A DNA stretch of 64,000 nt from the IMG/VR virus record IMGVR_UViG_3300026260_000002, positions 2,199 to 66,198 of that record. One strand, given 5' to 3'. The position numbers and the translations under genes were made by a program. The notes under the pieces are model-generated. The model was not told the DNA's origin and ran no database searches. It worked only from the letters and a program-made list of their open reading frames with translations. Source of the DNA: a virus. Taxonomy: Duplodnaviria; Caudoviricetes. Of the stretch, positions 3,278 through 4,748 are shown piece after piece (position 1 is the first letter of the stretch; each line of letters starts with the position of its first letter).

Positions 3278-3522
3278 CGTTCTTCGTAGGTTAATTTACG
3301 GACTTTTCGTTTGCGTCTGTCCTCTTGGTATTTTAGGTCACTTTCTGTCAGGATACCGTGATTTTTAATAATATCTTTATGTTTTGTTAAAACTACTTGA
3401 TCCAATTCGAGTGCTCCAACGTAATCATCCACAACCCGCATCTGATTGGGACAACCACAGAACTGAACCTTGCTAGTGCTTGCCAGTTCTGTGTTGCATA
3501 GTTTACATCTTGCTGTTAACAT
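3274..3522 (-). CDS. hypothetical Zn-ribbon-like protein
   Basis: CKLC...CGC motif, basic C-terminus. Confidence 0.7.
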   Translation of the reverse strand: MLTARCKLCNTELASTSKVQFCGCPNQMRVVDDYVGALELDQVVLTKHKDIIKNHGILTESDLKYQEDRRKRKVRKLTYEER

Positions 3523-3553
3523 TGTTCTTATGAGCTACTTGGGAATATGGAAA

Positions 3554-3627
3554 CGGGATAGAAGGGACTTGAACCCTCGACCTCCTGCGTGACAGGCAGG
3601 CGTTCTAACCAACTGAACTACTACCCC
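3554..3627 (-). tRNA. tRNA-Asp(GTC)
   Basis: GGGGTAG acceptor, anticodon arm CCTGC-CTGTCAC-GCAGG, T-loop TTCAAGT; no encoded CCA. Confidence 0.95.
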
Positions 3628-3629
3628 AA

Positions 3630-3703
3630 CTCCCCCGACTGGAATCGAACCAGTAACCCCAAAATTAACAGTTTCGTGCTCTGCCTGATTGAGCTACAGG
3701 GGA
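3630..3703 (-). tRNA. tRNA-Asn(GTT)
   Basis: TCCCCTG acceptor, anticodon loop CTGTTAA, T-loop TTCGATT; no encoded CCA. Confidence 0.95.
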
Positions 3704-3985
3704 ATGAAAGGGGCTTCTCACCCCCCTGAACTACTTGGTTAACAAGGCTAGTCTAACCCCGATCTCCCATTCAGGCAGTCGCGAGTTCGCGAGTGCGGGA
3801 GAATGCTACGATATTATTCGCAGCAGGTGTAGATGTTTTTGCATCTGTTGTTTGCTTATCCAAGCAGGTTTCAGTCACAATCGTAACAACCCGTCTAAAC
3901 CGTGGCACCCCCCTGAATGGAGGTGAGGAGAGTCGAACTCCTGTCCGAGCCTATTCGTAAAGTCACCTATTCCTCAAAAGAGGAA
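3704..3985 (-). ncRNA. ssrA: circularly permuted (two-piece) tmRNA
   Basis: Acceptor piece ends ...GGAC-AGGAG-TTCGACT-CTCCT-CACCTCC-A (discriminator 3918). A 5-nt spacer TTCAG follows. Coding piece starts GGGGGTG-CCACGGTTTAGAC at 3912, giving a G3:U70 Ala determinant. Tag frame 3821-3771 reads ANNIVAFSRTRELATA*, followed by a pseudoknot-like GGTTA/TAACC + GACTA/TAGTT. Confidence 0.92.
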
Positions 3986-4057
3986 TGCCACAAGTAGGAT
4001 TCAAACCTACAGTCTACCCATTACAAGTGGGTTGCATTATCGTTATGCTATTGTGGC
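3986..4057 (-). tRNA. tRNA-Thr(TGT), slightly atypical
   Basis: GCCACAA/TTGTGGC acceptor, anticodon arm ACCCA-CTTGTAA-TGGGT; T-loop TTTGAAT. Confidence 0.85.
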
Positions 4058-4059
4058 GA

Positions 4060-4133
4060 CGATCCAGGTTGGATTCGAACCAACGACCGACTGCTTAGAA
4101 GGCAGTTGCTCTATTCCACTGAGCTACTGGATC
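4060..4133 (-). tRNA. tRNA-Arg(TCT)
   Basis: GATCCAG/CTGGATC acceptor, anticodon arm ACTGC-CTTCTAA-GCAGT, T-loop TTCGAAT. Confidence 0.95.
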
Positions 4134-4145
4134 CTAAGCTATTAG

Positions 4146-4748
4146 TTAACTACCTCTTTGCACAACGATTGGGTCACCATCCCACATAGTCTTCCTAACC
4201 TTGTCAACTTTACCCCGTAGGTTAAACACAACGACGGTGCGTGATTTGTCTGACTCATTAGCTAGTGCCTCGTGGTGGACGGTTGCTGGAAAAATAACCA
4301 TGTCCCCTTCCTTAGCAGGTGGAATGAAGGACTCTAACCTACCACTCCAAGGGTTGTTGAAAGGTGAGATGAATTGCGTAGCTTGATGGACTTTTGGATC
4401 GAAGTCCACATAAATTACTGCTGACCATCCACTGTGTCCATGATTGTGGAGACCATGCTTCTGACCTTTAGTATATGTTTGACACCACAGGTCAGTAAAC
4501 TCGATGCGTCTCCGATCAGTAAACTCAGCAAGGTATGGCTCGATAATATCAATTATCGTATCAGCATAGGGTGGCAACTCCCAATTTTCTTCATCTTGAT
4601 GAAAGAAGTCAGTATGCTGCTCACCATTAGATTCTAGATGCTCCCTACCCAGTGTGGGTAGGACAGACATGATCTTCTTCTTATTCTGTTCCCAATTTTC
4701 AATTTCATAGTGTGCAATCGGAATAGAAAATAAAGAATAAATGGTCAT
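4146..4748 (-). CDS. 2OG-Fe(II) oxygenase (TIGR02466-like)
   Basis: HGLHNH..GWSAVIYV...FPATVHHEA..RTVVVFN. Confidence 0.85.
   Translation of the reverse strand: MTIYSLFSIPIAHYEIENWEQNKKKIMSVLPTLGREHLESNGEQHTDFFHQDEENWELPPYADTIIDIIEPYLAEFTDRRRIEFTDLWCQTYTKGQKHGLHNHGHSGWSAVIYVDFDPKVHQATQFISPFNNPWSGRLESFIPPAKEGDMVIFPATVHHEALANESDKSRTVVVFNLRGKVDKVRKTMWDGDPIVVQRGS

Follow-up and report, generated by a model that had tools for sequence, protein, structure and literature searches.

Introduction

Transfer-messenger RNA (tmRNA) releases ribosomes that have stalled. Cyanomyoviruses account for the death of a large proportion of marine picocyanobacteria, and the limits on phage protein synthesis late in infection are poorly known. 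Phage-encoded tmRNAs have been catalogued on a large scale: ARAGORN run on 18,146 phage genomes gave 133 unique tmRNAs, 53 of them two-piece, with marine or aquatic phages as the source of 50 of these 53 (Buchholz et al. 2022, PMC9004378). Their Table S1, which holds the ARAGORN call only, without structure or tag analysis, has seven cyanophage records marked "Permuted", namely S-CBWM1, S-CAM3, S-CAM1, S-CRM01, S-SSM7, S-SSM6a and Marine virus AG-345-P14 (PMC9004378). A tmRNA database published in 2025 contains 79 unique bacteriophage sequences (PMC11915505), and the tmRNAs of mycobacteriophages and Bacillus phage G were listed by Hudson et al. (2014, PMC4131195). Analysis of cyanophage tmRNAs beyond listing was not found in the literature, the genome papers of S-CBWM1 and the S-CAM phages lying outside the reach of our search. 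Here we analyze a tmRNA (ssrA) gene on the minus strand of a 64,000-nucleotide (nt) stretch of DNA, hereafter the window, which comprises bases 2199-66198 of an uncultured T4-like marine cyanophage record in IMG/VR (66,198 bases). A preliminary description, made from the letters of the window alone, named only one-piece phage tmRNAs, thereby implying novelty, and advised looking for precedent in cyanophages and the tmRNA database. Precedent exists (Table S1 of PMC9004378; the 79 phage sequences of PMC11915505); two-piece cyanophage tmRNA genes are already known and the gene in the window is a new example.

Anatomy of the tmRNA gene

Window positions 3705-3985 on the minus strand are a complete circularly permuted (two-piece) tmRNA gene of the cyanobacterial type. 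The Rfam model cyano_tmRNA (RF01851) matched over its full length (1-288 of 288) at 3710-4001(-), with 122.8 bits against a gathering cut-off of 70 and an E value of 8.5e-33, while tmRNA_permuted (RF04321) scored 65.6 bits against a threshold of 47, spanning 3967-3771, and ARAGORN called a permuted tmRNA with tRNA genes on both sides. These searches, which the preliminary description had suggested as a check, bear out its reading of a permuted two-piece tmRNA inside a tRNA array. The sequence features it had listed on the minus strand are all present where it placed them, and its limits of 3704-3985 are right to one base, 3985 being the first base past tRNA-Thr and 3704 the first base of tRNA-Asn according to ARAGORN. 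The parts of the gene, with the evidence that defines them, are as follows.

3918-3985, minus strand: tmRNA acceptor piece (sequence, Rfam alignment, covariation)
3913-3917, minus strand: intervening spacer UUCAG, 5 nt (sequence)
3705-3912, minus strand: tmRNA coding piece (Rfam alignment, structure mapped on alignment A1, minimum free energy fold)

The order of the pieces is permuted, in that the 3′ strand of the acceptor stem ends at 3918, the spacer occupies 3917-3913 and the 5′ strand begins at 3912. The acceptor piece opens with a 5′ hairpin of 6 bp (3985-3970), followed by the 5′ strand of the inter-piece helix 2 (3967-3946), the GGAC motif (3946-3943), a T-arm at 3942-3926 in which AGGAG (3942-3938) pairs with CUCCU (3930-3926) around the loop UUCGACU, and the acceptor 3′ strand CACCUCC (3925-3919) with A3918 as discriminator; CCA is not encoded. 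The coding piece begins with the acceptor 5′ strand GGGGGUG (3912-3906), whose pairing with the 3′ strand gives a stem of seven pairs including G3:U70, and continues with the D-region GGUUUAGAC (3901-3893), which has no D-stem, the 3′ strand of helix 2 (3893-3873) and a small hairpin GCUU/AAGC (3865-3854). Beyond the tag frame are a post-stop helix (3767-3737), a downstream pseudoknot in which GACUA (3753-3749) pairs with UAGUU (3733-3729), and a terminal hairpin (3726-3708). Helix 2 has 17 pairs in the window, 15 of them standard. The minimum free energy fold of 3985-3705 had a z-score of -4.31, with 0 of 200 shuffles folding as well, and it recovered most of the helices (5′ hairpin, T-arm, acceptor stem and the hairpins of the tag region).

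An open reading frame (ORF) of 45 amino acids (aa), with a GTG start at 3908 and spanning 3771-3908, overlaps the coding piece, and similar ORFs are annotated in GenBank as "hypothetical protein" in Sf-FS3, S-CAM3 and S-SSM7, which could be taken to mean that a small protein is the real gene and the RNA signal incidental. However, the ORF had no Pfam match, its 5′ half consists of the D-region and a strand of helix 2 where variation follows base pairing and not codons, and neither the covariance-model score nor the ARAGORN call can arise by chance from a protein gene. We regard a protein gene as extremely unlikely.

Conservation and covariation

Homologues were collected with two IMG/VR pattern scans, the first targeting the tRNA-like domain and the second the tag, followed by ARAGORN. 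This gave at least 127 cyanobacterial-type permuted tmRNA calls and at least 102 unique sequences, of which at least 83 were from viral contigs or phage genomes and at least 19 from hosts (Prochlorococcus, Synechococcus or Cyanobium genomes); counts out of 83, 19 and 102 below are among the matches listed. Alignment A1 contains 60 phage and 9 host sequences, and the structure mapped in the window was scored for pairs across these 69. Standard pairs filled 85.8% of cells compared with 75.5% in shuffles, the covariation score was 0.318 as opposed to 0.155 in shuffles (0 of 500 reached it) and 0.07-0.11 with partners slid, and changes on both sides occurred at 43 of 71 pairs compared with 34.6 in shuffles. 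The acceptor stem and T-arm were 100% paired, with double changes at all 5 T-arm pairs, and acceptor pair 5:68 was seen as G:C, A:U, C:G and U:A. The two halves of helix 2 were 97.1% and 79.4% paired with double changes at 9 pairs, and the downstream pseudoknot had double changes at all 5 pairs with 82.7% of cells paired. G3:U70 was present in 69 of 69 sequences, and also invariant were GGAC, the T-loop UUCGA, the discriminator A and the D-region pattern GG..U.GAC (columns G109, G110, T113, G115, A116 and C117); every tRNA-like-domain position invariant in hosts was invariant in phages too. Complementary acceptor strands were found in all 102 unique phage and host genes. This complementarity, together with the covariation, indicates a maintained RNA rather than a decaying copy.

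The opposite reading is that of a non-functional relic, either a captured host ssrA that is drifting or a mere processing spacer in a tRNA operon, which would be consistent with the lack of expression data, with the failure of GenBank annotators to recognize the gene and with an identity to host genes of only 62-65%. But at least 83 unique phage versions keep the helices through compensatory changes and keep the tag frame open, the phage sequences fall into old and well-supported clades separate from the hosts, and a relic would lose G3:U70 and the frame, neither of which has been lost in any of the 83 matches listed. A relic is thus very unlikely.

It is also possible to read the same conservation as the mark of a decoy or competitor, in which the phage RNA would mainly bind host SmpB and displace the host tmRNA, so that trans-translation in the host would be damped or redirected and ribosomes would not be rescued for the phage; this has been proposed for the RNA of mycobacteriophage DS6A, which consists of the tRNA-like domain only. 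Conservation in A1 is highest in the tRNA-like domain, where the invariant columns are concentrated, the phage is without an SmpB of its own, and Hudson et al. (2014, PMC4131195) report strong inhibition of tmRNA by a molecule reduced to this domain, with titration of SmpB as a possible cause. A decoy, however, needs no tag frame, and here the frame, stop, tag hairpin and downstream pseudoknot are conserved and covary, with all indels in the tag region multiples of three. Moreover, competition with the host tmRNA would follow from full function and is more a side effect than an alternative, and we consider a dedicated decoy improbable. An RNA of the DS6A type, reduced to the tRNA-like domain, was considered separately and rejected, the tag frame and downstream helices being both present and conserved.

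Tag, insert and resume codon

Two readings of the tag frame differ by a 21-nt segment that is found only in phages.

3771-3842, minus strand: tag frame as favoured here and by ARAGORN, AKTSTPAANNIVAFSRTRELATA plus UGA, 23 residues (AKTSTPA followed by ANNIVAFSRTRELATA) (ARAGORN; upstream motif)
3771-3821, minus strand: tag frame of the preliminary description, ANNIVAFSRTRELATA plus UGA, 16 residues (aligns with host resume codons)
3822-3842, minus strand: phage-specific insert GCA AAA ACA UCU ACA CCU GCU, encoding AKTSTPA, 21 nt (A1 columns 196-216)

The stop codon UGA is at 3773-3771, the frame is open from GCA 3842 and the tag ends in -LATA; a start at GCA 3842 reads AKTSTPAANNIV... and one at GCG 3821 reads ANNIV.... 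Exactly 21 extra bases were present in 48 of the 60 phages in A1 and absent from the hosts and the other 12 phages, and the insert falls between the pre-resume motif of hosts and the ancestral GCG. In Escherichia coli tmRNA the resume codon is set by the bases just upstream, especially the A at -4. In A1 the A at -4 of the pre-resume motif is invariant, and the motif stands before the first GCN of phages with the insert and before the resume codon of hosts and of phages without it; no such conservation was seen in A1 ahead of GCG 3821 or of the preceding GCU. In an insert-less phage, L061, the motif is the one found in the window, CAACAGAT, with GCA AAU AAC AUU GUA immediately after it. GCA 3842 stands 11 nt from the hairpin before it, compared with 12 nt for the resume codon in Synechococcus hosts. 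This pattern suggests that the resume codon is probably GCA 3842 with a 23-residue tag; GCG 3821, which would give 16 residues, is a possible but doubtful start, and GCU 3824 takes what likelihood is left. The preliminary description was accordingly right about an open frame ending in ANNIVAFSRTRELATA, but its 16-residue start is probably seven residues short at the N-terminus, since the frame is open for seven codons upstream and the motif stands before GCA 3842-3840, not before GCG 3821-3819.

The insert is structured. With the four bases that precede it, it forms a hairpin (AGAUG 3846-3842 with CAUCU 3835-3831) that appears in compensated form, AUCUG/CAGAU, in seven sequences, and its last codon extends the conserved tag hairpin, with perfect covariation between the third positions of insert codon 7 and of the Val codon (U:A in 34, A:U in 14). 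The 25 unique inserts had no frame-0 stops, but frame 1 was also without stops and this is weak evidence. Codon positions ranked third, first, second in variation, but this entropy pattern was discounted as proof of translation of the insert, because codon 7 pairs through its third base with that of the Val codon and the insert hairpin takes in codons 3-4.

Indels in the tag region of A1 were 6, 18, 21 and 24 nt, all whole codons, and the frame stayed open. Host tags were ANKIVSFSRQTAPVAA in Prochlorococcus and ANNIVRFSRQ[AP]APVAA in Synechococcus and Cyanobium; as the preliminary description had stated, host tags begin ANNIV or ANKIV. Phage tags among the matches listed shared ANNIVAFSR and then diverged, with tails TRELATA in the window and Sf-FS3, STVAA in S-CAM1 and S-CAM3, [IV]LTREFARTxEL[AV]TA in the S-SSM7 group, and PVSPVRTRELVAA, SKSTALV and others elsewhere, and the window tag differed from every host tag checked. 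Of the 83 unique phage genes, 36 encode a C-terminal -[AV]TA and 24 a C-terminal -VAA, while 19 of 19 host tags ended in -[VI]AA and 0 of 19 in -[AV]TA. The -ATA ending is a clade character and not a one-off.

Relatives of the S-SSM7 type (e.g. L239:1448-1799(-)) have a second in-frame tag insert of 24 nt at A1 columns 243-266, and another group has an 18-nt in-frame insert in the same columns. The 24-nt insert of the S-SSM7 group and its flank form, by eye, an 8-bp hairpin (UUCUCUCG...CGAGAGAA), and from these sequences tag growth in this type seems to have been by addition of structured whole-codon modules.

Lineage and genome context

Over the trimmed core, the gene in the window was 98.5% identical to that of an IMG/VR contig (L018), 83% to Synechococcus phage Sf-FS3, 75% to AG-345-P14, approximately 70% to S-CAM1, S-CAM3 and S-SSM7, and 62-65% to host tmRNAs. 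In a quick, unrooted maximum-likelihood tree of 263 columns, the host sequences (n = 9) were one clade (SH-like approximate likelihood ratio test, SH-aLRT, 99) and the window was inside a clade of 44 phage sequences with support of 95. As the tree is unrooted and drawn from 263 columns, it shows a long-standing phage lineage and not a donor; on this placement the window gene is a member of a large phage-only lineage.

The first 20 kb of the window were approximately 75% identical to the T4-like cyanomyoviruses S-WAM1, S-RIM12 and ACG-2014a, with matched genes including ribonucleotide reductase, DNA primase, transaldolase and their neighbours. S-WAM1 and S-RIM12 are the nearest isolate genomes, at only about 75% identity, and judged from these matches the window genome is of the lytic T4-like type. 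The CheckV estimate of completeness for the record was 35%, i.e. it is a fragment. The genome type bears on a further explanation, that a piece of ssrA serves the phage as an attachment site (attP) for integration into the host tmRNA gene, as it does in many temperate phages and genomic islands. Integrating elements often target tmRNA genes, and fragments of ssrA are found in prophages (PMC4383910, PMC9004378). Here, though, the gene is full length and not a 3′ fragment, it is 62-65% identical to those of hosts, the genome is lytic and T4-like, and no integrase (PF00589) match was obtained in this record. Full length, low host identity and the missing integrase exclude an attP fragment, and this is the explanation to which we give the least weight, close to none.

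According to ARAGORN the minus strand carries five adjacent RNA genes. These and the ORF ahead of them are given below in the order of transcription.

4146-4748, minus strand: upstream ORF, 200 aa, putative 2OG-Fe(II) (2-oxoglutarate and iron) oxygenase (ORF list; Pfam PF13759, E 6.1e-14)
4060-4133, minus strand: tRNA-Arg (TCT), first gene of the array (ARAGORN; Rfam tRNA 71.8 bits)
3986-4057, minus strand: tRNA-Thr (TGT), its 3′ end abutting the first base of the tmRNA acceptor piece (ARAGORN)
3680-4009, minus strand: permuted tmRNA, "tmRNA*" (ARAGORN)
3629-3704, minus strand: tRNA-Asn (GTT), starting no more than a few bases from the terminal hairpin of the tmRNA (ARAGORN; Rfam tRNA 62.6 bits)
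3553-3628, minus strand: tRNA-Asp (GTC), last gene of the array (ARAGORN; Rfam tRNA 72.1 bits)

The stop codon of the oxygenase ORF is 12 nt ahead of the RNA array, and tRNA-Thr is hidden in the Rfam listing by clan competition with cyano_tmRNA. Genes of the 2OG-Fe(II) oxygenase type adjoin the tmRNA in S-SSM7 and Sf-FS3 too.

Spacer length was 4-11 nt in 70 of the 83 unique phage homologues among the matches listed. In 12 of the 83 a complete tRNA gene fills the intervening spacer, either tRNA-Tyr-GTA (L245, L246, L273, L283, L290, L296, L306, L330) or tRNA-Asn-GTT (L279, L282, L291, L323). An example is L245:1234-1645(-), and despite the insert the Rfam match still extends over the full tmRNA model. 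The nested tRNA sits 2-4 nt from the discriminator of the acceptor piece and from G1 of the coding piece, and at that distance tRNA processing would free both tmRNA pieces. A single case of a tRNA in the spacer, a tRNA-Ala in a nominally archaeal metagenome-assembled genome, was called unique by the 2025 database paper (PMC11915505). At L342:5774-6336(-) an intervening segment of 220 nt contained no ARAGORN tRNA and the full cyano_tmRNA model was still matched with 97.7 bits.

Discussion

The patterns detected are consistent with a phage version of the two-piece tmRNA of picocyanobacteria that is functional, which we consider very probable from the retained pairing, invariant residues and open frame. 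No match to SmpB or to the CCA-adding enzyme was found in this record. Among five complete genome records of four tmRNA-bearing cyanomyoviruses (Sf-FS3, two S-CAM3 isolates, S-CAM1 and S-SSM7), SmpB (PF01668) was found in none, and the CCA-adding enzyme (PF01743) in none of the four records checked, so that the earlier remark that smpB is missing from the window holds for the whole record and for these relatives. With neither protein of its own and with the host-invariant positions kept, the RNA would have to use the host's alanyl-tRNA synthetase, SmpB, EF-Tu and processing enzymes.

The steps by which it might act are taken from the known biology of permuted tmRNA and tRNA processing. Given abutting genes and no recognizable promoter, the simplest reading is one precursor cut by tRNA-processing enzymes, which would contain tRNA-Arg, tRNA-Thr, the acceptor piece, the 5-nt spacer, the coding piece, tRNA-Asn and tRNA-Asp. 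Processing of the 3′ end of tRNA-Thr would free the 5′ end of the acceptor piece, and host RNase P would cut before G3912 and before tRNA-Asn, the latter cut defining the 3′ terminus of the coding piece. The 5-nt spacer would be trimmed back to A3918 and CCA, because it is not encoded, would be added by the host CCA-adding enzyme. The two pieces, held together by the acceptor stem and helix 2, would be charged by the host alanyl-tRNA synthetase via G3:U70 and brought by host SmpB and EF-Tu to ribosomes stalled on broken mRNAs, which are plentiful in an infected cell. Translation would then resume on the tag frame, most likely at GCA 3842, releasing the ribosome and adding a phage-specific tag that ends in -ATA. 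The likely benefit to the phage would be that a pool of free ribosomes is kept up late in infection while mRNAs break down.

Several observations weigh against a functional tmRNA of this kind. The record is only 35% complete, and the missing smpB means little here by itself. Expression, processing, charging or tagging was not found for any cyanophage tmRNA in the searchable literature. Upstream of the tag only the hairpin GCUU/AAGC was found, and a possible partner for the first pseudoknot (PK1; loop GGAU with AUCU) would compete with the insert hairpin. The point of resumption is ambiguous among GCA 3842, GCU 3824 and GCG 3821, and the third-position variation that resembles a coding signal is partly explained by RNA pairing. 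No sigma-70-like promoter was found between the upstream ORF and tRNA-Arg in a promoter scan that did not cover phage-type promoters, and the terminal hairpin, which is followed by UUUCAUU, could terminate some transcripts before tRNA-Asn.

Expression may be organized differently elsewhere in the family. In relatives of the S-CAM1/S-CAM3 type (L237, L238; A1 columns 1-38) the acceptor piece has neither an upstream tRNA nor a 5′ hairpin and is preceded instead by a conserved AT-rich block, GCTA[AC]TATATACAGTGTTC, which may be the gene's own promoter. Such an arrangement would imply two different expression modes for the same gene.

A more speculative proposal, which we think unlikely but worth stating, is that the phage lineage has rebuilt the message of the tmRNA, with a structured 7-codon extension at the resume site and -[AV]TA as opposed to the host -VAA, and that tagged products are handled differently from host-tagged ones. 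If this were true, rescue of ribosomes would proceed, but proteins carrying the phage tag would undergo slower degradation or be routed to a different protease or adaptor, and Clp capacity could be spared or the fate of truncated proteins altered during infection.

That phages widely conserve a tmRNA, in at least 83 distinct versions, points to ribosome stalling as a genuine burden during infection. The phage-specific tag is in addition an experimental handle, in that peptides ending ...RELATA, if present in proteomes of infected cells, would show that the RNA is active, where translation resumes and which proteins are marked.

As had been anticipated, standard annotation misses or miscalls the gene. 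In GenBank, 16 phage records from five phages have a homologue detectable with blastn, and 0 of 16 are annotated as tmRNA, showing "hypothetical protein" or nothing at that place. Coding sequences of "hypothetical protein" lie over the tmRNA in PV340856.1 (SfFS3_24), KU686198.1 (T040910_205) and NC_015287.1 (SSSM7_025), and these are probably gene-caller artefacts reading the tag frame and the RNA upstream of it. The mis-annotation is systematic and could be put right by screening cyanophage genomes with ARAGORN or Rfam RF01851/RF04321. The remaining value of the present locus lies in this mis-annotation, in the phage-specific tag with its probable 7-codon extension and -ATA end, and in the nested-tRNA variants in relatives.

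Comparison with known systems

Among phage tmRNAs, the one-piece molecules of mycobacteriophages (Bxz1 group) and Bacillus phage G resemble the window gene in being phage-encoded and dependent on host SmpB (PMC4131195), but they are unpermuted. The DS6A RNA lacks a tag frame, whereas the window gene is permuted and keeps it. Methylophilales phage Melnitz and pelagimyophages are, like the window, lytic T4-like marine phages with a complete permuted ssrA and no smpB, and for the Melnitz tmRNA a role in maintaining the hijacked translation machinery has been proposed (Buchholz et al. 2022, PMC9004378). The Melnitz ssrA is unlike that in the window in being of alphaproteobacterial type with a glutamine riboswitch in its 3′ domain; no riboswitch, glutamine or other, was matched within or beside the window tmRNA in an Rfam scan of 3300-4400 with E up to 1.

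Closest among the named phages are the isolate cyanomyoviruses S-CAM1, S-CAM3, S-SSM7/S-SSM6a, S-CRM01, S-CBWM1, AG-345-P14 and Sf-FS3, which have the same gene family, permuted ARAGORN calls and the 7-codon insert. Sf-FS3 (PV340856), which is absent from Table S1 of Buchholz et al., shares with the window the TRELATA tail, tRNA-Thr upstream and tRNA-Asn downstream. S-CAM1 and S-CAM3 differ from the window in being without the 5′ hairpin and the upstream tRNA and in tags that end STVAA, and S-SSM7 differs by its further 24-nt in-frame insert.

The two-piece tmRNA of picocyanobacteria (Prochlorococcus, Synechococcus, Cyanobium; RF01851) has the same permuted order and positions of the tRNA-like domain, the same helix 2, tag hairpin, post-stop helix with pseudoknot and terminal hairpin, and a tag core ANNIV.FSR common to both; the Prochlorococcus spacer of 6-9 nt is similar to the short one (5 nt) in the window. 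Compared with host tmRNA, the phage genes fall in clades outside the single host clade and have the 21-nt structured insert at the resume position, the window tag has the tail TRELATA as opposed to the host Q[AT]APVAA, and the window gene is embedded among tRNA genes in a phage genome without smpB whereas the host gene is standalone.

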